DNA from: Candidatus Eiseniibacteriota bacterium
GTDB taxonomy: Bacteria > ARS69
Direction of reading: 5' to 3'
Length of the DNA: 11,244 nt
Assembly: GCA_052390515.1 (NCBI GenBank)
Contig: JBQTGV010000108.1
Span: 1-11,244, forward strand
The position numbers were made by a program, and so were the translations under genes. The notes beneath the pieces are model-generated. The model was not told where the DNA came from and did not search any database. It saw only the letters and a program-made list of their open reading frames with translations. Within the stretch, counting starts at the first letter, position 1. The number at the start of each line of letters is the position of its first letter. Below are positions 1 through 11,244 of the stretch, piece by piece.

Positions 1-909
1 GGCCCAGTCGACGGTGTCGTCCTCCAGCTGCGTCGGCGTGGTCCAGGAATAGCGCTTGCTGGCGAACGCGCTGAGGGCCGGCCACCGATCCGACTTGGCC
101 GCGGTGACCGCCGCCGCGCTCGCGCCGGCCGACGTCCGGGCGGCACGCAGATCGGGGTTCTCCTGCTGCGCGCGGGCGAGCGACGTCTCCAGGGTCAGCT
201 CCGTCTCGACCGTGAGGTCCTCCTCGGCGAGCTCGATGGCCGCGTTCGGATCCAGTCCGAGGTAGGTCGCGAGAGCCGCCTTGGCCACGTCCAGGTTGCG
301 CTGCGCGCGAAGCACCTCGAGGCGGTTGTTCGCGTGGTCCACCTCGCTCTTGTACACGTCGGCCTTGGTCGAAGCGCCGAGCTCCTTCATCGCCTCGGTC
401 TTCTTGAGCTGCTCGCCGGACAGGTTGGCCGCCTCCTGCTGCACCCCGAGGAGCTCCTGCGTCTTCTTCACCTCGAAGAAGCGCCTCTCGGTCTCGCGGA
501 CCACTTCCTGCCGCGCGGAGAGCAGGCGCTCCTCGGCGGCCGACCGCCCGCGAGAAGCACTCTGAAAGGAGGCCACGTTCCCCCAGCCGTCGAAGAGAAG
601 AAGGTTCGCCGAGGCGCGGTAGTTCCACTCGTCCTCGTCGAAGAGCACGTCCGAGTCTCCGATCCGGACCAGACGCGGCTCCGCCCGGGTGACGCTTCCG
701 CCCAGCTCGAGCCTCGGCAGGAACGCCGCACGCGCGCCGGTGACGTCCGCCTGCGCCGAGCGAAGCGCGCCGTGGGCCTGCTCCACGACCAGCGTGTTGT
801 CGAGGGCCAGGCGGACGCAGTCGTCCAGCGCCATCGGCGCGGCACCCGCGGCCGGGGCAAGGCCCGCCGCCGCGAGCCCGAACAACCCCTTCAGGCCGAG
901 CTTCGTCAT
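1..909 (-). CDS. TolC-family outer membrane efflux protein (5' part; truncated at left window edge)
   Basis: Translated by hand and absent from the ORF track. ATG at 909 is preceded by GGAGGAGG, and the frame stays open for 303 codons to position 1. It begins MTKLGLKGLFGLAAAGLAPAAGAAPMALDDCVRLALDN, a signal peptide followed by the typical 'L..cv..AL.N' start. OEP-repeat hallmarks follow: 'ARAAFLPRLEL', 'ANLLLFDG', 'ELGASTKADV', 'ALATYLG', 'QENPDLRAA', 'AKSDRWPALS'. Confidence 0.9.
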   Translation of the reverse strand, partial: MTKLGLKGLFGLAAAGLAPAAGAAPMALDDCVRLALDNTLVVEQAHGALRSAQADVTGARAAFLPRLELGGSVTRAEPRLVRIGDSDVLFDEDEWNYRASANLLLFDGWGNVASFQSASRGRSAAEERLLSARQEVVRETERRFFEVKKTQELLGVQQEAANLSGEQLKKTEAMKELGASTKADVYKSEVDHANNRLEVLRAQRNLDVAKAALATYLGLDPNAAIELAEEDLTVETELTLETSLARAQQENPDLRAARTSAGASAAAVTAAKSDRWPALSAFASKRYSWTTPTQLEDDTVDWA

Positions 910-960
910 CGTTCCTCCTCCATGCTGCGTCTCTCCGTCCGGCTGCGGGCGCGAACGGCT

Positions 961-986
961 TACGGGATCCGGCCCGCCGGGGTTTC
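961..986 (-). promoter_or_regulatory. Possible ECF-sigma-type promoter upstream of the TolC gene
   Basis: Minus strand reads GAAAC-N17-CGTA (986-982, 964-961) in the 79-nt gap between the Yip1 and TolC genes. This resembles the AAC/CGT ECF promoter architecture, but the motifs are short and could be chance. Confidence 0.3.
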
Positions 987-988
987 GG

Positions 989-1741
989 TCAGAGCCGGCC
1001 GGCGGCCCACGATCCCACGGCCGACACGACCAGCGAGACGAAGGAGGTGACGGCCCAGAACGTCCCTCCGATCGCCCAGCCGGCTCCTCCCGGCGCGCCG
1101 AAGACGAAGCGCGAGCCGAGCGCCAGGAACCAGAGCGTCACCAACGAGAAAACGGCGAAGACCTCGAGAAAAAGGTGAGGCAGAGAACCCCAGGTCAGAC
1201 CCGGAACCAGAGCCGCCGGACCGAGGGACACCTCGATGGTGTCGGCCGCGCGCACCACCACCGCCAAGATCAGATACCCGAATCCGGCCGCGAGGTTCGC
1301 CGTCCAGTACGTCGACAGCGCCCTGCGATAGCTCGGCTGGGGGCCGAAGAGCTTCGCGATGACCCAGAGGACGAGCGCGCCCAGGAAGCCGAGGGCCGCG
1401 AGCGTCACCGTCACCATGGCGATGTGCAGCGCCGCCTGAACCTGGGAGAGATTCTCGGGATCGGGGATGCCCGCCAGCGCCGCCGCGCGATCCTCCTCGG
1501 GCACGCCCATCCGCTCGATCGTGGCTTCCGTCACGTCGTACTGGTACGCGAGATCCTGGGGCATCCGGATCCACGTGGCCACGAGGACGAGCACGGTGCA
1601 CAGAACGAACTGTCCGAGCCACTGCGGATCCTCGCCGAGGCGCCGGAACGCGGACGAGGGCGAAGAGAAAAGCATCGGGACGATCGCGAGGCCCTTCGCC
1701 GCGCCGGGCGCTCCCGCCGGTGCGGCGACCGACTGGCTCAT
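989..1741 (-). CDS. Yip1-domain (YIP1/YknW-like) integral membrane protein, 250 aa
   Basis: ATG at 1741 is preceded by AGGAGGGGAG. The N-terminal 'MLFSSPSSAFRRLGEDPQW' matches the Yip1 'P...F..l...P.W' pattern. One TM helix is followed by a hydrophilic loop and about four more TM helices, with a 'SYRRALS' motif. The gene lies next to a TolC gene. Confidence 0.8.
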   Translation of the reverse strand: MSQSVAAPAGAPGAAKGLAIVPMLFSSPSSAFRRLGEDPQWLGQFVLCTVLVLVATWIRMPQDLAYQYDVTEATIERMGVPEEDRAAALAGIPDPENLSQVQAALHIAMVTVTLAALGFLGALVLWVIAKLFGPQPSYRRALSTYWTANLAAGFGYLILAVVVRAADTIEVSLGPAALVPGLTWGSLPHLFLEVFAVFSLVTLWFLALGSRFVFGAPGGAGWAIGGTFWAVTSFVSLVVSAVGSWAAGRL

Positions 1742-1783
1742 GCCGCTCCCCTCCTGGGCCGCCGGGCCGCGGCCCGACCCGGC

Positions 1784-1812
1784 AGCGTAGCGCGCCCCGA
1801 TCGACGTGTCCC
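1784..1812 (-). promoter_or_regulatory. Weak candidate internal sigma70 promoter for Yip1-TolC
   Basis: Minus strand reads GGGACA (1812-1807)-N17-TACGCT (1789-1784): a 4/6 match at -35 and TAnnnT at -10, about 40 nt upstream of the Yip1 start. Confidence 0.3.
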
Positions 1813-1828
1813 AAGGAGGATTGGGGGA

Positions 1829-1889
1829 GGCCGACGCCGGTCAGTAAATCGAGGACGGTCGGGAAGGGCCGACGCCGGTCAGTAAATCG
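1829..1889. repeat. Perfect 23-bp direct repeat (2 copies, 15-bp spacer) covering the GWxTD gene stop codon
   Basis: GGCCGACGCCGGTCAGTAAATCG occurs at 1829-1851 and 1867-1889, separated by AGGACGGTCGGGAAG (1852-1866). Confidence 0.95.
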
Positions 1890-3465
1890 TGGCGCCGCTG
1901 CTCCCGATCAGCGTGTAGGTGCCGTTGCCCATCTCGTCGGCGAAGATGAACTTGAGGCCCCGGTGGCTGTCCGGGCCCCGATCCACCCGGTCGGTCAGCG
2001 GGTAGCCCGCCCCGTCGTAGACCCAGACCTCCAGCTGCTTGGACTTGATGTTCGTCCCGCCGCGCTGCTCGGTGACGTCGCTGACGTCGCCCTCGCGGAA
2101 CTCGTCCGCGTCCAGGAACGAGGTGGAGGGGCGGGCACGGAGCGTGGCTCTTTCCGCCGGATCGGCGACACGCTCGGCGTTGCCGTCGAGGCCGAAGCCG
2201 GACGAGGAGAACTCGTAGAGGACGTCGTCCGGAGGGCCGTAGCGGACCCAGACCCGGCCCCGGTCGGTCAGGATCCCACGGGTCAACGGCGAGCCGAACT
2301 CGTGATCGGCGTGCTGCACGCGCCCGCGGAACGAGTCCAGGACCTCGTTCTCGGGCGTGTCGGGATCCGGGTCCAGCTCGTGCCAGTACTCCGCCAGGTA
2401 CACCTCCTGCGCCCCGGGGTTGAGGTCGCGCAGCGTGCGATGCTCGGACTCGCTCATGATGAGCGCCATCTCCTGCACCATCAGCAACGGATCCCGGCCC
2501 CAGGTTCCGACGGACCAGACCACTTCCAGAGGCTCGCTGACCCGCGCGATCTCGCGCGTACGCTCGCCGAGAACGGTCACGTCCAGCCGGTAGGTGCCGG
2601 CCGTCAACCGCTCGGGGAGGCGAAGCTCGTCAGCCAGCACGAAGAGATCCGACGGAGGGAGCGCCCGCGTCGTCTTCTCGCCCCGGGGCACGCCCGACTT
2701 GTCCATCAACTGGACCTGGACGAGATAGCCGTCTCCCGGCACGAACGACGCTCCCGCGTAGACCTCCACGTAGTACCTCGCCAGCGGCAGGACCAGCCCG
2801 TAGAACCGCTGCGGATTGGGATCGTAGTCGATGCCGCGCCGGCCCTCCTCCCCGGCGGCCGGCCGCCAGCTTCGCAGCAGGGCCAGGTCCGACAGCACCA
2901 GACTGTCGCCGCGCAGGTCCCGAACCTCGATCCAGCCGGCGGCGGTTCCGTCCTTGTGCTTCTTGCGGATCTTGTTGAGCAGGCCGGTGCGCAGGGCCCT
3001 CTCGTCGGTCAGATGCACCTCGAGGCGGAGGAGCCCTGGTGCGACGAACGCCGACTGGGAGAGGGCCTGCACGATGGCGCGATCCGCTCCGTCCAGCCGC
3101 GAGGCGGCCCTGGGCTCGAGCACCGACTCCTCGGCGAAGACCTCCGTCCCGGCCTCGTCGCGCAGGGTGACGCGCATGCGCAGGCTCCCCGCCCACGTCC
3201 CGTCCTGGGTTTCCCGGAACTCGAGCTGATCGTTGGAGATCGAGGCGGACACGGCAAGCTCGATCCGCCCGCCGTCGGCGCGGAACGAGGACGCATCGAC
3301 GAAGAAGCGGAGGTGCCCTTCGCTTTCCAGGGGGAGCTCGACCGGTGCCGGCGAATCCTCGGCGAATGCGCCACCTACCGCGGCCGCGAGGACCGCGAGT
3401 CCGACGGAGACGCTAGCGCGGATCCGGCTAGAACCGCAGCTCCGCGCTGAACTTGTGGACGTCAT
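1879..3465 (-). CDS. GWxTD domain-containing exported protein, 528 aa
   Basis: Signal peptide ends ...VGLAVLAAAVGGAFA|EDS. Two predicted beta-sandwich regions follow ('PGLLRLEVHLTD', 'LSDLAL', 'AGTYRLDVTV'). The family core reads 'YWHELDPDPDTPENE...RVQHADHEF...GILTDRGRVWVRYGPPD...EVWVY...FIFADEMGNGTYTL'. ATG 3465 is the nearest in-frame start before the hydrophobic signal segment and overlaps the upstream gene by 38 nt. Confidence 0.85.
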   Translation of the reverse strand: MTSTSSARSCGSSRIRASVSVGLAVLAAAVGGAFAEDSPAPVELPLESEGHLRFFVDASSFRADGGRIELAVSASISNDQLEFRETQDGTWAGSLRMRVTLRDEAGTEVFAEESVLEPRAASRLDGADRAIVQALSQSAFVAPGLLRLEVHLTDERALRTGLLNKIRKKHKDGTAAGWIEVRDLRGDSLVLSDLALLRSWRPAAGEEGRRGIDYDPNPQRFYGLVLPLARYYVEVYAGASFVPGDGYLVQVQLMDKSGVPRGEKTTRALPPSDLFVLADELRLPERLTAGTYRLDVTVLGERTREIARVSEPLEVVWSVGTWGRDPLLMVQEMALIMSESEHRTLRDLNPGAQEVYLAEYWHELDPDPDTPENEVLDSFRGRVQHADHEFGSPLTRGILTDRGRVWVRYGPPDDVLYEFSSSGFGLDGNAERVADPAERATLRARPSTSFLDADEFREGDVSDVTEQRGGTNIKSKQLEVWVYDGAGYPLTDRVDRGPDSHRGLKFIFADEMGNGTYTLIGSSGATIY

Positions 3466-4393
3466 CGAGAAAATCCATCGCCGAGAAGCCGTAGTCGACC
3501 CGGATCCACGACGCGCTTCCCGTCGGGAACTCGACGCCGAAACCGGAGGTGAGGCTCTCCTCGTCCCGGTTGTAGCGATACCCGCCGCGCACCTGGAGCG
3601 TGACGTTGGGCTGGAAGGTCTTGAGCGTGTACTCGGTTCCGAAGCTGGCCCGCTCCGCGTTGTCCGAGGGGTGATCGAACTCGAAGGCCAGCAGGACGTT
3701 GTGATCTTCGCTCTGGTAGGCGTCCATGGCCGTTCCCACCTTGAACATCGTGGGCAGCGGGAAGCTGTCCTCGATGAAGGTCAGCGACGGACCCATGCTC
3801 TGGATGGCCATGCCGATGCGGATCGTCTTGTAGTCGGTGTAGTAAAGCGTGCCGAAGTCCACCGCGAACCCGTCGGCGTTCTCGTCCTCGAGACCGAGGT
3901 GCAGGAACTTCGCGGTCAGACCGAACGCGAAACGATCGATCAGGTTCTTCGCCCAGGTCAGGCCCAGGTTGAAGCTCCCGGCGTCGAAGTTGTCCCCGGT
4001 GCCGCCCGGGCTGAACTCGGTGCGTACCGGGATCGGGTCCATCTGCAGCACGGTCGAGGTGAACGCGTAGGAGCCGGGAAGTCCGCGGTAGGTGAACGCG
4101 TAGCCGAAGAACTCGTGGGAGATGTCCGCCGGCCAGGTGGAGTGGTTCAGCGTCACGTGGGCGTGTCCGTCCTGCGTGATGCGCGCGACGCCGGCGGGAT
4201 TCCACCAGGCCGCCGTCGCGTCGTCGGCCACCGCCACGAACGTCTCGCCCATCCCGACCGCGCGCGCTCCGACGCCGATCTTGAGGAACTGGGCTCCCGA
4301 AGTACCGACCTTGCGGAAGATCTCGGCTCCGTGCGCGGCCGGCGCGCACGCCAGGCAGGCCACCAAACAGCCGATCCAGAAGCCTCTCCTCAC
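3428..4393 (-). CDS. PorV/PorQ-family (UPF0164, FadL-like) outer membrane beta-barrel, 321 aa
   Basis: Start reassigned from 4561 to GTG 4393, which has GGAGG 9 nt upstream and is directly followed by a signal peptide. Family signature 'GTSGAQFLKIGVGARAVGMGETFVAVADDATAAWWNPAG' is present, along with alternating beta-strands, 'AVDFGTLY', 'LPTMFKVG', and a C-terminal Phe (SAELRF). Confidence 0.88.
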   Translation of the reverse strand: MRRGFWIGCLVACLACAPAAHGAEIFRKVGTSGAQFLKIGVGARAVGMGETFVAVADDATAAWWNPAGVARITQDGHAHVTLNHSTWPADISHEFFGYAFTYRGLPGSYAFTSTVLQMDPIPVRTEFSPGGTGDNFDAGSFNLGLTWAKNLIDRFAFGLTAKFLHLGLEDENADGFAVDFGTLYYTDYKTIRIGMAIQSMGPSLTFIEDSFPLPTMFKVGTAMDAYQSEDHNVLLAFEFDHPSDNAERASFGTEYTLKTFQPNVTLQVRGGYRYNRDEESLTSGFGVEFPTGSASWIRVDYGFSAMDFLDDVHKFSAELRF

Positions 4394-4446
4394 CGCGGTC
4401 GTCCTCCCTCGTTCACCGGTGCGCCCGTGGGCCGGGATGCGCCACC

Positions 4447-6621
4447 TTAGCGGATGATGACGAACTTGCCAACTTTCTCCTGCCCGGTCGCGGCATCGGT
4501 GACGTGGTACAGGTAGATCCCGCTCACCGTGTCCTGGTTGTTCTTCGACACCAGGTTCCACGACGCCTGGCCGCGGTCCTCGTCCGTGATCCGGTCATCG
4601 TGTTCGAGCGTGACCACGTGATCGCCGGCCAGCGTGAAGATGCGGATCGTGGCCCGCTCCGGCAGGTTGAAGAACTTGATGCGCCGGCCGGTCGGCTCGA
4701 AGCTCGTCTCGGCGAGGTCCCAGGCCGCGGACCCGCGATACGGGTTGGGCACGACGTACACGTCGTCCAGCGTCTGGGCCGGCGTCGTGCGCGGCATCAC
4801 CCGGACCATGTTCTGCGAGAACTTGCCGAACTTCGGCGGATCGGAACGGACCACTGTCGTTTCCGGGGGAGAGCCGCTGATCACCAGCGAGATCGTGCCC
4901 CGATCGTAGGCGCTGACCGCGTACCAGTAGAAGAAGCCGTTCTGCACGCGGGTGTCCACGTAGCGGTACTTGCCCAGCCCGGACATGCCGGTGTCGATGT
5001 CCGAGAGCTCGGTGCTGTCGAAGTCCGCGATCAGCCTCCACATCTCCTCGGACGGGATGTTCGACTCCCGCTTCCACCCTTCCGCCTTCCAGACCTGGTA
5101 CCCGGCGAAGTCCAGCTGCCGGGTGAGCGGATCCGGGATCTCCTCCGGGAAGTCGTCCCATTCGACGACGACGTGGCGATCCCCGGCGGTCACGTTGATG
5201 TTCGGCGGCGGCGGCGGGGAGCTGGTGGCCCAATGCACGCGCTCGCCCGTCGTGGGGTCGACGAACCCGTTGTACACGCGCTGCGCCTGCACCGGATTGG
5301 CCATTTCGGCCACGCGCCGGGTGTTCCCGTCGACGTCGGTCTGATCGACCATCAGCCCGCAGACGAAAGCCACCTGGAAGACGAGCGTGGACCCCGGAGG
5401 GATCTTCTTGAACGGTCCGGCCGAGACCAGGAACCGGTAGTCGTTCTCGCGGAACGTCGGCGGGCTGATGCTGCGCACCGTGTCCCCGAGGGATCCCCGC
5501 AGGAACCGGTAGCGGTCCAGATCGTCCCGGTCGTCCTCGTCGCCGCTGGACCAGATCCGGAACGTGTGCAGCCCGACCTCCCGGGGAGCGAAGGAGCTCT
5601 CGAAATCCGGGGCGAGGGTGTCCACGGTGTGCCCCAGGAACATCACGCCGCAGTATCCCGGGACGTCGTCGCCCTGCGTGCCGGGGTTGTCGAAGATGTA
5701 CCCGAGCGTGATGTGCAGCTCGTCGACGCCGCCGGTCTCGAGCACCACCGTGGTATCGAGCTCCGCGAAGGCTCCGTGATCGTCCTCGTAGTTGTTCAGC
5801 TCTTCGTCGTCGATGCCCACGTCGCCGTCGACCATGAATCCGACGTACGCGTTGTTGATGTCCCAGCCGACGCCCGCGGGATCCACGACGTTGGACATGT
5901 TCAGCACGCTGTATTCGACTCCGACGAAGTCGTCGAACTGCGGGTCGGTCCACACGTAGCTTTCCTGGGTCACCTTGAGTCCCATGGGTACGTGCTGGTC
6001 GGCGTCGTCCGGGAAGAACTGGTTGAACGCGGTCGACGTATCGTAGAAGACGCAGCGGAACATCTGCTGGGAGATCCCGGCGAAGTCCTCGTCGATGCGG
6101 CCGTCCCCGTCGTTGTCCTCCCCGTCGAGCGCGTCCTCGTCCACGAGACCGTCGCCGTCGTCGTCGAAACGGCGCAGCCCCGCCGGAGCGCCCTCGAACG
6201 TCTGACAGATCCCCTCGGGCGGGCTTCCGCAGCCCTCGTTCTGCTCGACGTTCGCGAACTCGCCCTGCTGGAACAAGCCCGACGAACACAGCGTGTCCTG
6301 GGCGCCGCTCCGGTTGATCACTCCGGCGACCCACAAGCCGGCGCCGTACAGGTATTCCTGATTCGTCCCCGCGGGCCACTCGCCGGAGGGCGCGGTCAGG
6401 TCGGAGCCGCGCCGCCCGAAGTATCCGCGGTTCGACACGTGCAGCAGAACGTTCCCGGCGTCGTGGAACCAGCCGGCGAACTCGTCGACGCGGATGGACG
6501 GAGGCAGCCACTGCGAAGGCCCGCCCTCTCCCTCGGTAGCGTCGGCGGGCGCACAGGGAAGCAGACCCGCGGCGAGCGCGGCCGAGAGACACCACGCGCG
6601 CGGCGTGGGAATCCGATTCAT
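4447..6621 (-). CDS. Large acidic secreted protein with DxDxDG repeats, Fn3-like domain and T9SS type-A-like/FlgD-Ig C-terminal domain, 724 aa
   Basis: ATG 6621 is preceded by GGGAGG; the ORF-track GTG at 6633 is an alternative. It has a signal peptide (...APADA|TEG), N-terminal 'HDAGNVLLHVSNRGYFG...PSGEWPAGTNQEYLYGAGLWVAG', and repeat 'DDDGDGLVDED...DNDGDGRIDED'. The Fn3-like part reads 'PPPPPNINVTAGDRHVVVEWD...FAGYQVWK...YRYVDTRVQNGFFYWYAVSAYD'. The C-terminus reads 'VYVVPNPY...IKFFNLP...IRIFTLAG...WNL...SGIYLYHV...KVGKFVIIR'. Confidence 0.85.
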   Translation of the reverse strand: MNRIPTPRAWCLSAALAAGLLPCAPADATEGEGGPSQWLPPSIRVDEFAGWFHDAGNVLLHVSNRGYFGRRGSDLTAPSGEWPAGTNQEYLYGAGLWVAGVINRSGAQDTLCSSGLFQQGEFANVEQNEGCGSPPEGICQTFEGAPAGLRRFDDDGDGLVDEDALDGEDNDGDGRIDEDFAGISQQMFRCVFYDTSTAFNQFFPDDADQHVPMGLKVTQESYVWTDPQFDDFVGVEYSVLNMSNVVDPAGVGWDINNAYVGFMVDGDVGIDDEELNNYEDDHGAFAELDTTVVLETGGVDELHITLGYIFDNPGTQGDDVPGYCGVMFLGHTVDTLAPDFESSFAPREVGLHTFRIWSSGDEDDRDDLDRYRFLRGSLGDTVRSISPPTFRENDYRFLVSAGPFKKIPPGSTLVFQVAFVCGLMVDQTDVDGNTRRVAEMANPVQAQRVYNGFVDPTTGERVHWATSSPPPPPNINVTAGDRHVVVEWDDFPEEIPDPLTRQLDFAGYQVWKAEGWKRESNIPSEEMWRLIADFDSTELSDIDTGMSGLGKYRYVDTRVQNGFFYWYAVSAYDRGTISLVISGSPPETTVVRSDPPKFGKFSQNMVRVMPRTTPAQTLDDVYVVPNPYRGSAAWDLAETSFEPTGRRIKFFNLPERATIRIFTLAGDHVVTLEHDDRITDEDRGQASWNLVSKNNQDTVSGIYLYHVTDAATGQEKVGKFVIIR

Positions 6622-6634
6622 GAGGCCTCCCACG

Positions 6635-9376
6635 CTAGAACTCGAACTGGAGACCGACGCGGAAAACGCGCGGCTCGTCGAAAACTCGCGGATCGTTGAG
6701 CGGAATGAGCACGTCCTCGGTCAGCCCGATCGTATCGGCGAGGTTGTACGCCCCGCCCAGCTCGCCGAACTCCGTGTAGTACTGCCGGTAGTACTCCGTG
6801 TCCGGAATCGGATACAGCTGCGGCCGCAGCGAGCGCACGTTCTGGCGGTCCAGGATGTTGCGGCCCTCCAGGAAGAGCCGGAACTCCTGGCCGTAGAGCA
6901 CGTACAGCTTCTGGGCCTTCAGATCGAGCGTCATGATGGAAGGGAGACGGATGGAGTTGATCTCCTCGGCCAGCTCGTTTCTCTGTCCGAGGCGCAGCGG
7001 CGTCACCGGAGACCCCGCCGCTACGTTCAGGTCGAACGAGACCTGCCAGATGCCCGGGTCGGAGAACGCGATGAACGAGTTCAGGACGTGCGGCCGGTCC
7101 CAGCTCAGCGGCACCTCGCGGATCGGCTCGCGGTCCAGACCCTCGCTCTGGACGATCGCGCCCTGGTTCACGTCGGAGGACGAGCCCGTGGCCCGGGACA
7201 GCGTGTAGGAGATCCCGCCCTGCCAGTAATTGGAGAAGCGCTTGTCCAGGGATAGCTCGAACCCCCGCACCGAACCGTAGTCCTGGTTGAAGTACGTGGT
7301 CGAAGCGAACTGCTGCTGTTCGGTCTCGCGCTCCGCCTCGAGCTCCTTGGTCCCCACCAGACCGAAGATGTCTTTGAAGAAGACCGTCGCGTCCACGAAG
7401 ATCGACTCGGACAGCTGCCGCCGCACGCCAAACTCGTACGAGATGGTCGTCTCCGGATCGAGGAACGCATTGCCGACGATCTGGTTTCCGGCGTTCGGAT
7501 TGTTCGAGTAATCGTAGAGCAGCTCGAGGTCCGGCAGCTGGAAGAACCGTCCGTAGCTGAAGTGCAGCACGTCGCGGTCGGAGATCGGATAGGACATGCC
7601 CAGCCGCGGCGAAACCTGCGCCTTCCAGCGCTCGAGGAACGACGTGCCCTCCAACGGCTTCTCCAGGATGAGCACGCGCTGGTTGGAGACGCGGATCGCG
7701 TCCTCTCCGGGATCGAAGAAGTCGAAGCGTAGGCCGGCGTTCAGCACCATGGAGTTCTCGTAGCGCAGCCGGTCCTGCACGTAGATCACGCCACCGACCG
7801 CGGACTGCTCGTACTGGTTCGGGAAATTCCCGAGGGGGTCGTCCTCGTCCGGAAACGTGCGCGAGTCCTTGGTGAGATCGAAGTAGTCGACCGTCATCCC
7901 GGTCTTCAGCTCGTGCGTCTCGCCGGCAAGCTTGTTCTGGTAGTCGGCGCGGACCGTGTACTGGTTGGACTCGCGCTTCTCCCACACCGGGTAGTCTCCG
8001 GTGACGCTGTAGAACAGGTTCGCCGGATCCCGATCGACGTCGTTGCCGGTGAACGACACGTACCGCTCGGGGCTCTTGTCGGCCACGTTCTCGGTGTACC
8101 GGTTGTTGAACAGCGCGAGGCGGGCGGTGACGAACGAGTCGTTGGTGAGCGGGTGCGTGTACACCAGCTTGTACTGGTCGTTCTTGGCGATGCGCTCGGA
8201 GAGATGCTCCGGACCGTTGTAGTACGTATACGTGCTGTCCAGCGGCTCGAACCACCACTGCTCCTCGGCCTCCGACCAGTAGCCGACGCGGCTGAAAGCG
8301 TGGTGGTACCAGTCGTTCGCCGAGCGGGAGAACAGATACTCGCCGGAGATCTTGCGCGCGTTGGGGAAGCGGTAAGTCAGCTTGCCCTGGCCGCGGATCG
8401 CGTTCTCCTGCCGGTCCCTGAGGCTCGCCAGCTCCAGATCCTCGAAGAAGAGCTTGCGCGCTTCGCGGTTCTCCAGGGTCTTGAGGTAGGTGTCCTGGAA
8501 GACGCCTTCGCCGGAGAGGTAGAACCGCCATGCGTCCCCGGCGAACGGCAGGGGTCCACCGAAGCCGAGCGCGATGTTGTCGTAGTTGAAGTAGGTCTTG
8601 TCCGGGGCCCCGAAGTCGTCGGTCAGGAACTTGATCTGTCCGGCGACCTCCTCCCCGCCCTCGCGGGTGGCGATCTCGATGATGCCCGACTGGGCGTTGC
8701 CATACTCGGCGTCGAAGCCGCCGGTCAGCACGTTCAGACCTTCCTGCGAGGTCAGCGCGATATCCAGGGTGCCGCCCTGGCTCGACGATCCTGCGAACGA
8801 ATCCGACACCGGCATCCCGTCCACGACGGTCTTGACCTCCGACGAGCGGCCGCCGCGCACGAAGAACTGGTCGCCGAGCTGGACCACGCCGGCCTGCGTG
8901 GCAATGGCTTCCTCCGTCGTGTTGATCGCCCGGATCTTGGACTGCTCGCGGGTGTCGATCACGCGGATCGTCGTAGACTCCTGCGTCTTGAGCTCGTCGA
9001 GCTTCTCGCCGAAGACGTCGATGACCTCCATGTCCGCCGCAACCGTCTGCTCGAGGGTGACGCTCACCGTGGCGGTGTGCCCGCCCTCGGCGACCACGAC
9101 CGGCGTTTCGCTGCTCTTGTAGCCGACCAGGCGAACCTCGACCGTGTAGGTACCGGGAGCGACGCCCTCGAAGAGGAACCGTCCCGCGGCGTCAGCCTGG
9201 CGGCCGCGCCCCAGCTCGCGAAGGATGACGTTCGCTTCGGGAACCGGCTTGCCGTTCGTGCTGGTGACAGTGCCCTCGATGCGTCCGGTCGTCGGCGCCT
9301 GCGCAAAACCCGCGACGGGAACGGCCAGCAGCGACACCGCCATCAGAATCGTGAGAAGAAGACGCGTCGGAGGCAT
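6635..9376 (-). CDS. TonB-dependent receptor with N-terminal carboxypeptidase regulatory-like domain, 913 aa
   Basis: ATG 9376 has GGAGG 9 nt upstream; the ORF-track GTG at 9385 overlaps this SD region. The signal peptide ends ...VAGFA|Q. It is followed by 'GRIEGTVTSTNGKPVPEANV...GRFLFEGVAPGTYTVEVRLVGY', a TonB-box-like 'EVIDVFG', and plug motifs 'VRGGRSSEV...VDG' and 'GGFDAEYGNAQSGII'. Barrel motifs are 'NAGLRFD', 'VSPRLG', 'GNAFLDPET', 'RGFEL' and 'NILD', ending in 'PRVFRVGLQFEF'. Confidence 0.95.
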   Translation of the reverse strand: MPPTRLLLTILMAVSLLAVPVAGFAQAPTTGRIEGTVTSTNGKPVPEANVILRELGRGRQADAAGRFLFEGVAPGTYTVEVRLVGYKSSETPVVVAEGGHTATVSVTLEQTVAADMEVIDVFGEKLDELKTQESTTIRVIDTREQSKIRAINTTEEAIATQAGVVQLGDQFFVRGGRSSEVKTVVDGMPVSDSFAGSSSQGGTLDIALTSQEGLNVLTGGFDAEYGNAQSGIIEIATREGGEEVAGQIKFLTDDFGAPDKTYFNYDNIALGFGGPLPFAGDAWRFYLSGEGVFQDTYLKTLENREARKLFFEDLELASLRDRQENAIRGQGKLTYRFPNARKISGEYLFSRSANDWYHHAFSRVGYWSEAEEQWWFEPLDSTYTYYNGPEHLSERIAKNDQYKLVYTHPLTNDSFVTARLALFNNRYTENVADKSPERYVSFTGNDVDRDPANLFYSVTGDYPVWEKRESNQYTVRADYQNKLAGETHELKTGMTVDYFDLTKDSRTFPDEDDPLGNFPNQYEQSAVGGVIYVQDRLRYENSMVLNAGLRFDFFDPGEDAIRVSNQRVLILEKPLEGTSFLERWKAQVSPRLGMSYPISDRDVLHFSYGRFFQLPDLELLYDYSNNPNAGNQIVGNAFLDPETTISYEFGVRRQLSESIFVDATVFFKDIFGLVGTKELEAERETEQQQFASTTYFNQDYGSVRGFELSLDKRFSNYWQGGISYTLSRATGSSSDVNQGAIVQSEGLDREPIREVPLSWDRPHVLNSFIAFSDPGIWQVSFDLNVAAGSPVTPLRLGQRNELAEEINSIRLPSIMTLDLKAQKLYVLYGQEFRLFLEGRNILDRQNVRSLRPQLYPIPDTEYYRQYYTEFGELGGAYNLADTIGLTEDVLIPLNDPRVFDEPRVFRVGLQFEF

Positions 9377-9627
9377 CGCGGTCACCCTCCCCTGGGGGCT
9401 GGACAGCCTGACTGGAGGATCGGAGCTCGATCGAACCGATCCGACATCATAGCGAACCGGGTTTCACGCCGCGACGCTCAGGGGCCGGAAGTGGACCACC
9501 GTCGGGGACTACGGGCACTTCTCGAAACCGCTGCGCTGGTCCCGTTCACGCTTTCTTCAAACCGCCCGCGCCGACTCCCGCAACCCATTGACTCTCAACG
9601 AGCTACACCGACCCGGTTGCGGACGGT
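9377..9627 (-). promoter_or_regulatory. Long (~250 nt) structured 5' leader of the TonB-dependent receptor operon
   Basis: Spans the predicted TSS (~9627) to the start codon. It contains a hairpin at 9580-9606, an alternative helix 9578-9585/9615-9622, a hairpin 9417-9423/9436-9442, and an anti-SD (9414-9420) complementary to the SD region (9384-9390). Confidence 0.45.
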
Positions 9628-9633
9628 GCGGTC

Positions 9634-9662
9634 ACTATAGCCAAGGCTCAGGGGGGTGTCAA
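9634..9662 (-). promoter_or_regulatory. sigma70-type promoter for the TBDR operon
   Basis: Minus strand reads TTGACA (9662-9657)-N17-TATAGT (9639-9634): perfect -35, 5/6 -10 and optimal spacing in a GC-rich background. Confidence 0.8.
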
Positions 9663-9724
9663 GGCGACCAAACCATTGCAGTGTCAAATCTTACGTCACG
9701 CGCGACCCTCGATCGGTGGAGTCG

Positions 9725-9753
9725 TTGACACCCCGGGAGGCGGCTCCTATGCT
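9725..9753 (+). promoter_or_regulatory. sigma70-type promoter for the ABC ATPase gene
   Basis: TTGACA (9725-9730)-N17-TATGCT (9748-9753), about 50 nt upstream of the TTG start. Confidence 0.75.
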
Positions 9754-9804
9754 GCGGCTCTTCCGGGTGCGAAGCGGCCACCCGACCGCCGAGGAGCCCG
9801 TCCC

Positions 9805-11244
9805 TTGACCGAGCCTCTCCTCTCCGTCCAGGGGCTCCGAACAACGTTCCGCACCGAGGAAGAGACCGTCGAAGCGGTCCGCGACGTTTCCCTCGAGATC
9901 CGCCCCGGCCGGACCCTCGGGCTCGTGGGCGAATCGGGCTCGGGCAAGTCCGTCACGAGCCTCTCCATCCTGCGGCTGCTTCCCGACAAGGTGGCCCGCA
10001 TCGACGCCGGCGCCGTCCGCTTCCTCGGCCGAGACCTCGCGCAGCTCCGGGAACGCGACCTGATCAAGATCCGCGGCGCCGAGATCAGCATGATCTTCCA
10101 GGAGCCCATGACCTCGCTCAACCCGGTGCTCACCGCCGGAGCGCAGGTCATGGAAGCGATCCGCATCCATCAGGACGTGTCCCGCAAGGAGGCCCGCGAG
10201 CGCACCGTCCGGCTCTTCGAGGAGGTCGGCCTACCCGACCCCGCCGCCCGCGTCGACATGTACCCGCACGAGCTCTCCGGGGGGCAACAGCAGCGCGTGA
10301 TGATCGCCATGGCTCTCTCGTGCAATCCCAAACTGCTGATCGCCGACGAGCCCACCACCGCGCTGGACGTCACCATCCAGGCGCAGATCCTGGACCTGCT
10401 GCGCAGGCTCCGCGACACGCGAAAGATGGCCATGCTGTTCATCACGCACGACCTCGGGGTGATCGCGGAGATCGCCGACGACGTGGCGGTGATGTACCGC
10501 GGGCGCATCGTCGAGCAGGGAACGATCGAGCGGATCTTCGGCGCGCCCGAGCACCCGTACACCAAGGGACTGCTGGCGTGCCGGCCGCGGCTCACCACCA
10601 CGCTCTCCCGCCTTCCCAGCGTCTCCGAGTTCATGGACGTGGTCACGGACGCGCGCGGCGAGGCGACGATCACCGAGCGCGTCGCCGACCTGTCCCGCTT
10701 CGAGCGGGAGCGAACGCGTCCGGATCCGGCCACCGCGCGGGAAGAGCTCGTCGTCGAGGACCTGCGCGTGCACTTCCCGATCCGCAAAGGACTCCTGCAG
10801 CGGACGGTCGGCTGGGTGAAGGCGGTGGACGGCATCAGCTTCCGCGTCCGCACGGGGCGGACGCTCGGGCTCGTCGGGGAGTCCGGCTGCGGTAAGACCA
10901 CCACCGGGCGAGCCATACTCCGGCTGGTGGAGCCCACCTCGGGACGCGTGCTGTTCCGCGGCCGGGACCTGGCCCAGCTCTCCGCCAAGGAGATGCGGGC
11001 GCTGCGCAAGGAGATGCAGGTCGTCTTCCAGGATCCGTACGGAAGCCTGAACCCGCGTCTCACGGTGGAGGGCGCGCTGGTCGAGCCCATGGAGATCCAC
11101 GGGATCGGATCGAGCCGCCGCGAGCGGCGTGACCGGGCCGCGGCGCTGCTCGAGGAAGTCGGGCTGGAGACCGCGCACCTCCGCCGCTACCCGCACGAGT
11201 TCTCCGGCGGCCAGCGCCAGCGCATCTGCATCGCCCGCGCGCTG
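9805..11244 (+). CDS. Dipeptide/oligopeptide-type ABC transporter ATP-binding protein with two fused NBDs (GsiA/YejF-like architecture); truncated at right edge
   Basis: Translated by hand and absent from the ORF track. TTG 9805 has GAGGAG 8 nt upstream and reads [18 protein letters not shown]1 has Walker A GESGSGKS (9928-9951), '[12 protein letters not shown]', signature '[12 protein letters not shown]', Walker B '[12 protein letters not shown]', 'ITHDL' and 'HPYTKGLL'. NBD2 has Walker A GESGCGKT (10876-10899), '[12 protein letters not shown]' and '[12 protein letters not shown]'. Confidence 0.95.

Follow-up and report, generated by a model that had tools for sequence, protein, structure and literature searches.

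A conserved gene module of Eiseniibacteriota that joins a TonB-dependent receptor and a Pfam-less protein with a T9SS type-A-like tail to a PorV/PorQ-family barrel and a GWxTD protein

Four tightly coupled genes on the minus strand

The window, a term used here for the whole stretch of DNA that was analysed, comprises 11,244 nucleotides from Candidatus Eiseniibacteriota bacterium (NCBI GenBank assembly GCA_052390515.1, contig JBQTGV010000108.1, positions 1 to 11,244). Its central feature is a group of four genes on the minus strand, which encode a TonB-dependent receptor (TBDR), a protein with a C-terminal domain (CTD) resembling the type A domains of the T9SS (type IX secretion system), a barrel of the PorV/PorQ family, and a GWxTD protein. 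The second protein is called the cargo throughout. A first-pass annotation made from the letters alone had described four tightly coupled genes behind one promoter. The calls, the strand and the spacing all agreed with the lists of open reading frames (ORFs) and with a reading of the junctions, i.e., gaps of 13 nt and 53 nt and then an overlap of 38 nt. The genes are:

6635..9376, minus strand: TonB-dependent receptor, 913 aa; ATG at 9376, with GGGGAGGG just before
4447..6621, minus strand: cargo, 724 aa; ATG 13 nt past the TBDR stop
3428..4393, minus strand: PorV/PorQ-family barrel, 321 aa; GTG 53 nt past the cargo stop, with GAGGGAGG just before
1879..3465, minus strand: GWxTD protein, 528 aa; ATG 38 nt inside the PorV-like gene

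The GWxTD start lies upstream of a signal peptide, and no alternative in-frame ATG, GTG or TTG precedes this peptide. The annotated promoter ahead of the four genes was recovered as well, and it is followed by a leader:

9634..9662, minus strand: sigma-70-type promoter-like site TTGACA-17-TATAGT, 11/12 matches
9377..9633, minus strand: leader of about 250 nt from the promoter-like site to the TBDR start (junction reading)

Two promoter-like sites of such quality were found in the window, compared with 0.5 +/- 0.7 in shuffled sequences. The related locus L004 (loci are numbered in this form) keeps both hexamers, and L001 keeps the -10. Terminator-like sites were not found on the minus strand between the four genes, and from this and the tight spacing it is proposed that they are co-transcribed. 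The leader was considered as a known riboswitch and this was rejected, because a search of the whole window, leader included, against Rfam at E<=1 gave zero matches. Among five relatives only a short TTGCG-containing stretch of the leader is conserved.

The G+C content of the window is about 67%, and 39 ORFs of at least 80 aa can be read in it, many of them spurious; family or homologue support was obtained for six genes on the minus strand and one on the plus strand. High-GC DNA of this kind, with its many spurious long ORFs, could in principle produce an adjacency by chance or by faulty ORF calling. For the present module this was regarded as practically negligible, since all four proteins have family or homologue support and their order recurs in dozens of loci.

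The gene order is conserved and linkage is all-or-none

With one genome scanned per species, 604 candidate stretches emerged, of which 430 were confirmed, and the best 80 loci were analysed. They stem from metagenome-assembled genomes (MAGs) that are labelled Gemmatimonadota, Eisenbacteria/Eiseniibacteriota, Krumholzibacteriota, Latescibacterota or Effluviviaceae, or are unclassified. In the NCBI taxonomy Eiseniibacteriota stands among the candidate phyla, outside any named group. The window proteins were used as phmmer queries on six-frame ORFs, and 85 cargo copies were found in the 80 loci. Their neighbourhoods were as follows:

At least 1500 nt upstream readable, 69 cargo copies: receptor adjacent in 40
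At least 1500 nt downstream readable, 60 cargo copies: PorV-like gene adjacent in 38
At least 3200 nt downstream readable, 51 cargo copies: PorV-like gene in 33
Both flanks evaluable, 46 cargo copies: TBDR-cargo-PorV-GWxTD in 21
Both flanks evaluable, 46 cargo copies: TBDR-cargo-PorV-PorV in 7
Both flanks evaluable, 46 cargo copies: TBDR-cargo-PorV, a second cargo gene, then GWxTD in 1 (L070)
Both flanks evaluable, 46 cargo copies: downstream half of a split cargo gene within a module in 1 (L051)
Both flanks evaluable, 46 cargo copies: none of the three neighbours (stand-alone) in 16

The receptor gene upstream and the PorV-like gene downstream were thus both present at 29 of the 46 copies that could be evaluated on both sides, and not one of the 46 had the receptor only or the barrel only. 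Behind the 33 PorV-flanked copies with at least 3200 nt readable, a GWxTD gene came next in 24 cases and a second PorV-like gene, with no detected GWxTD gene, in eight. The order also holds in lineages in which cargo identity drops to about 33%, and locus tags of the source records fit it (DHS20C21_01520/_01540; HKN12_08450/_08460). The four genes form a conserved module, and the expectation of the first-pass annotation that it would be conserved in other genomes was borne out.

The stand-alone copies often share a MAG with a module copy. A Pfam analysis around four of them (90 ORFs; L005, L044, L056, L071; L007 was left out because of its size) revealed unrelated neighbours and no receptor or barrel. 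In a cargo tree of 69 rows, a quick IQ-TREE calculation with midpoint root and several long branches flagged, they were interleaved with module copies, and in many cases the sister of a stand-alone copy was the module copy from its own MAG (L005/L001, L030/L079, L050+L069/L034, L046/L062). The two-PorV form made up nearly one clade. The stand-alone paralogues may be alternative heads that dock on the same barrel, or they may be ordinary T9SS cargo.

These results bear on a reading in which cargo, barrel and GWxTD protein would be a T9SS-type sub-complex that anchors an adhesin or enzyme on the surface and is unrelated to transport, and receptor and Ton genes would merely be co-located or co-regulated. 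The stand-alone paralogues speak for it. In addition, sets of a cargo, a dedicated FadL-family barrel and a periplasmic partner are known without a receptor, for which PorE-PorP-PG1035 and SprF-SprB are described as examples (PMC9143113). On the other hand, the linkage of receptor and barrel to the cargo is all-or-none (29 with both, 0 with one only, among 46), the order is kept at a cargo identity of about 33%, and the short distance of 13 nt implies that receptor and cargo are co-translated from one mRNA. An anchoring function without any connection to transport was considered rather unlikely, and a role of the module in TonB-dependent uptake is preferred below.

Several variants of the arrangement were seen. 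L070 (3227-10849) carries two cargo genes, one on each side of a single PorV-like gene, and L079 (3968-9781) has two tandem receptor genes before one cargo gene. The cargo genes of eight records labelled Patescibacteria, Binatia, Limnocylindrales, Hyphomicrobiales or Bacteroidota (L039, L045, L047, L052, L055, L067, L073, L077) nest among the Eisenbacteria copies, which suggests mis-binned contigs or wrong labels.

The barrel and the predicted docking of the cargo tail

The third protein of the module belongs to the PorV/PorQ family (NF033709, 182.8 bits over 290 residues, cut-off 90; PF19572, 38.5 bits, cut-off 27). It is not PorV, PorQ or PorV2 proper, as the respective models NF033710, NF033711 and NF052325 gave 67.9, 70.7 and 65.7 bits at cut-offs of 250, 220 and 325. 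Residues 1-22 form a signal peptide, and the protein aligns with Flavobacterium johnsoniae PorV in the PDB (6h3i_F, E 1.4e-11).

For complex prediction the mature barrel (residues 23-321; alignment A2, 31 rows) was combined with cargo residues 600-724 (alignment A1, 22 rows). The interface score ipSAE was 0.94 in all three runs, and the best of three controls reached 0.00. Contact agreement between the runs was at least 92%, and the predicted local distance difference test (pLDDT) value of the partner was at least 76. The ipSAE mark applied is reached by 116 of 157 solved pairs and by 2 of 215 mismatched pairs, a calibration that is only roughly valid for custom alignments. The predicted interface includes, among others, barrel residues 28-40 and 88-91, several of which are invariant in A2. 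The PorV chain 6h3i_F is common to seven PDB entries, and because similar PorV-CTD complexes have already been solved, the pass may reflect likeness to these complexes and not binding of this particular pair. With this caveat, the complex prediction supports docking of the cargo CTD on the adjacent barrel, for which the first-pass annotation had demanded a confident modelled interface. Its further claim that the barrel is the cargo's own cognate partner is less straightforward in view of the 16 stand-alone paralogues among 46 copies.

The cargo belongs to a large family without Pfam assignment

At E<=0.01 the cargo matched no Pfam family, models of the SusD type included. A word-indexed search yielded 421 homologues, and the number of representative clusters in the family falls from 3805 at E<=0.001 to 1726 at 1e-10 and 220 at 1e-30. 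Sixteen diverse or long relatives were also compared with Pfam; 15 had no family and one had an EF-hand match below the cut-off. The structure model (pLDDT 70.9, predicted template modelling score 0.66) consists of a beta-rich N-terminal domain, an FN3-like domain and a seven-strand C-terminal domain:

5227..6474, minus strand: N-terminal beta-rich domain, residues about 50-465 (model)
6076..6174, minus strand: invariant acidic loop DDDGDGxxDED..DxDGDGRIDEDF, residues about 150-182, invariant columns D153-D179
4822..5214, minus strand: FN3-like domain, residues about 470-600; its Foldseek matches are FN3 arrays
4450..4788, minus strand: putative T9SS type-A-like CTD, residues 612-724 (NCBIfam matches, model strands)

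The acidic loop, which we take to be calcium-site-like, has a low pLDDT in the model. A Foldseek search of the whole model against the PDB gave matches to FN3 arrays only, with a template modelling (TM) score of at most 0.15; PorZ (5m11) stood at rank 47 with a TM score of 0.11. The multidomain nature of the model probably masks matches of the N-terminal domain. A cargo profile found nothing meaningful among PDB sequences, the CTD alone gave no PDB match below E 0.1, and in the ESM Atlas there were unnamed clusters only.

The type-A-like character of the tail is suggested by its relatives in particular. The best match of the last approximately 110 residues is the C-terminus of PorZ (E 1.7e-6), and the PorU tail is matched as well. 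Of 22 aligned family members, 16 match TIGR04183 Por_Secre_tail (T9SS type A; PF18962) at E<=0.01 (best 7.8e-7), while the PorZ tail and the PorU tail are each matched by 12; the window protein itself stays below the TIGR04183 cut-off, and the CTD is the least secure element of the first-pass observation. The seven strands of the CTD model span residues 622-722, and T9SS type A domains are described as a 3+4 beta-sandwich (PMC11285876). The median identity over all pairs was 46% for the CTD, 42% for the passenger and 37.5% for the FN3-like domain. Conservation of the CTD that equals or exceeds that of the passenger mildly favours a tail that is retained and structural.

The cargo starts with a signal peptide, and the 21 other homologues in the alignment do not conserve the Cys that follows L-L-P. 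From a reading of these features the cargo appears to be a non-lipoprotein, in agreement with the first-pass annotation. Eiseniibacteriota, Cloacimonetes and Fidelibacterota also have longer family members (900-1200 aa), with the same well-conserved tail and no Pfam family.

Receptor and cargo fall outside the SusC and SusD families

The receptor scored 107 bits with PF00593 (cut-off 27), 33 bits with the Plug model PF07715 (23.9) and 67.6 bits with CarboxypepD_reg (32.3), so that plug and 22-strand barrel both lie above their Pfam cut-offs and mark it as a TonB-dependent receptor. A signal peptide is followed by CarboxypepD_reg (residues 36-112), the plug (140-233) and the barrel; matches to PDB sequences were weak (PhuR, PqqU, YncD). 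The SusC/RagA model TIGR04056 gave 21.3 bits at a cut-off of 368.25, and this in the N-terminal part only. By sequence the receptor is thus not SusC/RagA. Likewise the cargo is not SusD/RagB, to judge from the lack of a Pfam match and from the signal-peptide Cys that is not conserved. The likeness to SusCD that had been put forward for the locus therefore comes down to gene position.

The GWxTD protein

The last gene of the module encodes a GWxTD protein by TIGR04514 (71.5 bits, cut-off 28) and PF20094 (27.9 bits, cut-off 26.9); the motif reads G-I-L-T-D-R-G. The model (pLDDT 77.5) shows a signal peptide, two beta-sandwich domains (residues 45-320), a helical GWxTD domain (326-420) and a disordered stretch (421-475). 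No PDB sequence was matched, Foldseek returned only tandem beta-sandwich proteins (RbmA, transglutaminase C-domains, arrestin/VPS26), and the homologues found were all orthologues bearing the name "GWxTD domain-containing protein". A literature search for "GWxTD" found no paper. By analogy with PorE, which in PMC9143113 is a periplasmic protein bound by PorP-like barrels, the GWxTD protein might be a periplasmic partner of the neighbouring barrel.

A second, divergent GWxTD paralogue lies directly after a TolC-like gene in three loci (L004 18556-19080, L010 10507-11706, L074 19375-20061), and for this reason GWxTD proteins may pair with outer-membrane proteins more generally.

Ton genes follow the module in most relatives

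The region downstream was surveyed for 42 module loci, 26 of which were readable, i.e., for at least 5.5 kb past the last module gene. Of these 26 loci, 22 have ExbB no more than 5 kb past the module, 21 have TonB and 17 have a TolC-like gene; a set of the order exbB-exbD-exbD-tonB follows the module in 22. ExbB lies either 135-300 nt past GWxTD or 4.1-5.0 kb past the second PorV gene. In L002, which has a cargo 69% identical to that of the window and a contig of 973 kb, GWxTD is followed by ExbB, two ExbD and two TonB_C genes, and then by Yip1, a TolC-like gene and a MacB-type ATPase. The proposed uptake role gains support from these directly downstream genes of the relatives. The window itself, from which they are absent, resembles L004, in which Yip1 also follows directly after GWxTD. 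At the position where most relatives have exbB-exbD-exbD-tonB it contains the following feature:

1814..1889, no strand assigned: tandem duplication of 38 nt (84% identity) across the GWxTD stop codon

Because window and L004 lack these genes at this place, the duplication may be a scar of the loss of exbBD-tonB.

In two-PorV loci without GWxTD (L014 14207-18443 and others) about 4 kb of Pfam-less ORFs lie between the second barrel gene and exbB. In the 4-kb stretch of L014 there are eight ORFs, and none of them had a Pfam match.

The export route

Core genes of the T9SS were absent among the seven window ORFs that were scanned; the scan covered the window, and genomes were not searched. A hidden Markov model of the cargo tail gave 15 matches outside cargo genes in the analysed loci. 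Seven of these non-cargo ORFs were tested, and four passed the Por_Secre_tail cut-off (30.8, 31.2, 34.0 and 40.3 bits). The passengers of the non-cargo type A CTDs were beta-helix/FG-GAP, Calx-beta and FlgD_ig proteins, and one is encoded in the MAG of L002. As above-cut-off CTDs sit on unrelated passengers, type A tails are in wide use in these lineages, in keeping with a general T9SS that is encoded elsewhere; the occurrence of the T9SS in the FCB superphylum is described (PMC11205867). Export of the cargo by such a system, one of the two routes envisaged in the first-pass annotation, is thus plausible. Literature searches for Eisenbacteria and type IX secretion found no paper, and for Eisenbacteria and secretion system none was relevant by title or abstract.

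As an alternative, the module could be a self-contained export-and-display system, in which the cargo would cross the outer membrane without a canonical T9SS and would then be held on the barrel. Either export would fall to the TonB-energised receptor, in the manner of Oar with PopC, or translocation to the 14-stranded PorV-like barrel, in the manner of the Slam barrels of the type 11 secretion system (T11SS) with TbpB-type cargo. The position of the cargo gene between receptor and barrel would suit such a system, as would the private ExbB-ExbD-ExbD-TonB set in 22 of 26 loci and the lack of a T9SS core gene among the seven scanned ORFs. Moreover, Oar with ExbB/ExbD/TonB is reported to secrete PopC and has an N-terminal extension (PMC6434023), as the receptor has an extension domain before its plug, and in T11SS loci TonB is described to occur together with a TBDR, a barrel and a cargo that bears a targeting domain at its C-terminus (PMC8406197). 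However, type A CTDs are present on unrelated passengers away from the modules and stand-alone cargo paralogues exist, and both call for a general export route. The barrel belongs to the PorV/PorQ family and not to DUF560, and the window is devoid of exbBD-tonB. The authors of PMC8406197 argue that TonB powers uptake, not export, in T11SS loci. Taken together, a self-contained export route appeared improbable. The further-reaching idea that module and following ExbB-ExbD-ExbD-TonB genes are one compact, self-sufficient machine, which exports and displays its own cargo, was judged very doubtful; if true, it would amount to a simple T9SS counterpart outside Bacteroidota.

A possible mechanism

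The gene identities, the conserved order, the all-or-none linkage and the predicted CTD:barrel interface were obtained by computation. Building on them, it is tentatively proposed, as a quite possible reading, that the locus encodes a TonB-dependent uptake module with a surface partner whose uncleaved tail fastens it to a dedicated PorV/PorQ-family barrel, and with the GWxTD protein as the periplasmic partner of this barrel. The cargo would be exported by Sec and would then cross the outer membrane by a T9SS-type route encoded elsewhere. Its type-A-like CTD would not be discarded, but would remain docked on the co-encoded barrel, like PorZ on PorQ and PorU on PorV. In this way the beta-rich N-terminal domain with its acidic loop and the FN3 spacer would be kept next to the receptor on the cell surface, where the cargo might contact or serve the receptor and capture or process its substrate. 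The GWxTD protein, translationally coupled to the barrel, would be the periplasmic partner of the barrel and would resemble PorE with PorP. In most relatives the dedicated ExbB-ExbD-ExbD-TonB set would energise the receptor.

Several results weigh against this proposal. The CTD of the window protein scores 15.9 bits with TIGR04183 at a cut-off of 23, and the docking prediction may be likeness to solved complexes. For the N-terminal domain of the cargo, searches by PDB profile, fold, Atlas and Pfam assigned no function. The stand-alone copies, 16 of 46, are recent paralogues of module copies in unrelated neighbourhoods, and hence the cargo needs no adjacent receptor or barrel. Ton genes are absent at the module not only in the window and L004, but also in L034, L060 and L073. 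Finally, the upstream side of the module is not conserved, and an Opp-type ATPase adjoins the receptor in 9 of 30 evaluable module loci. Of the first-pass interpretation as a whole, the conserved module, the predicted docking of the CTD and the support for uptake remain, and the analogy with SusCD is reduced to gene position.

TonB-dependent transporters work with lipid-anchored surface partners such as SusD, RagB, BtuG and TbpB, and the SusD fold is helical. The present locus resembles SusC-SusD and RagA-RagB in that the gene of a TonB-dependent transporter directly precedes that of a surface protein and in that the receptor has an N-terminal CarboxypepD_reg-type domain. It differs in that the partner is beta-rich and a putative non-lipoprotein, and in the proposed anchoring by CTD and barrel instead of lipid. 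If the proposal is true, the tethering of a transporter partner through a T9SS-type CTD to a PorV-family barrel of its own would represent a third principle of anchoring. It would also provide a first functional context for the Pfam-less cargo family with its 3805 clusters, for the GWxTD domain and for PorV paralogues outside Bacteroidota. Since several uncultured candidate phyla from sediments and soils share the conserved module, it is relevant to the way in which these organisms feed.

The closest known systems in logic seem to be PorZ-PorQ, PorE-PorP with type B cargo, and TbpA-TbpB-Slam, which would be combined here in a new way. PorU and PorZ are described to keep their tails uncleaved and to stay on barrels of the PorV/PorQ family, PorZ sitting on PorQ (PMC10947112), and the tail of the present cargo matches PorZ and PorU best. 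In contrast to them, its passenger is not PorZ-like, its barrel is below the equivalog cut-offs, and the genes lie within a receptor/Ton locus. PorP-like barrels, of the FadL family as SprF-like barrels are, are reported to anchor adjacent type B cargo on the surface, often with a barrel-binding periplasmic partner such as PorE (PMC9143113). The present locus has a type-A-like CTD, a PorV/PorQ-family barrel in place of PorP and a GWxTD protein in place of PorE, and those systems include no receptor. TbpA-TbpB-Slam and the Hrp locus of type 11 also hold TonB, a TBDR and a dedicated barrel that delivers a surface or secreted co-receptor by a barrel-targeting C-terminal domain (PMC8406197). However, the barrel families (DUF560 and PorV/PorQ) and the cargo domains are unrelated, and neither DUF560 nor TbpB_B_D is among the Pfam matches of the window proteins; T11SS is known from Proteobacteria, and an export function of the barrel is not indicated here. 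Oar-PopC of Myxococcus xanthus likewise links a TBDR that bears an N-terminal extension, together with a Ton system, to the passage of a protein across the outer membrane (PMC6434023), and the likeness seen between the receptors is one of architecture; unlike the cargo, PopC has neither signal peptide nor CTD, and a PorV-like barrel has no part in this system. Literature searches found no paper describing the module, with subscription-only literature and preprint supplements outside their reach, and among the papers listed for PorV with TonB-dependent, CTD and paralog, or for "PorV-like" with TonB, none describes it.

Neighbouring genes and further features of the window

Three further genes flank the module:

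989..1741, minus strand: Yip1/YknW-like membrane protein, 250 aa, downstream of GWxTD
1..909, minus strand: TolC-like gene, 303 aa present; the gene continues past the window end
9676..11244, plus strand: fused double ATPase of the Opp/Dpp/Gsi type, upstream of the TBDR and divergent

In 17 of the 26 readable loci the module is succeeded by the Yip1/YknW-like and TolC-like genes and, in relatives, by an ABC ATPase of the MacB type (window 1-1741; L002 18372-21360), and these genes look like an efflux set of the YknWXYZ/MacAB-TolC type in conserved synteny.

On the other side of the module, neighbours of the receptor in other loci were lipoate ligase, V-type ATPase, TldD/PmbA and housekeeping genes. 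A peptide substrate, which the divergent Opp-type ABC genes of the window would suggest, was rejected as a general feature, because this adjacency is not conserved. The ABC ATPase ORF begins with a TTG about 45 codons ahead of the family homology (9676-9815, plus strand), and a plus-strand promoter-like site (9725-9753) lies inside this N-terminal extension, so that the true start is probably later. Within the same frame ARAGORN called a tRNA-Ser(cga) at 10651..10739 on the minus strand, which is probably a false positive.

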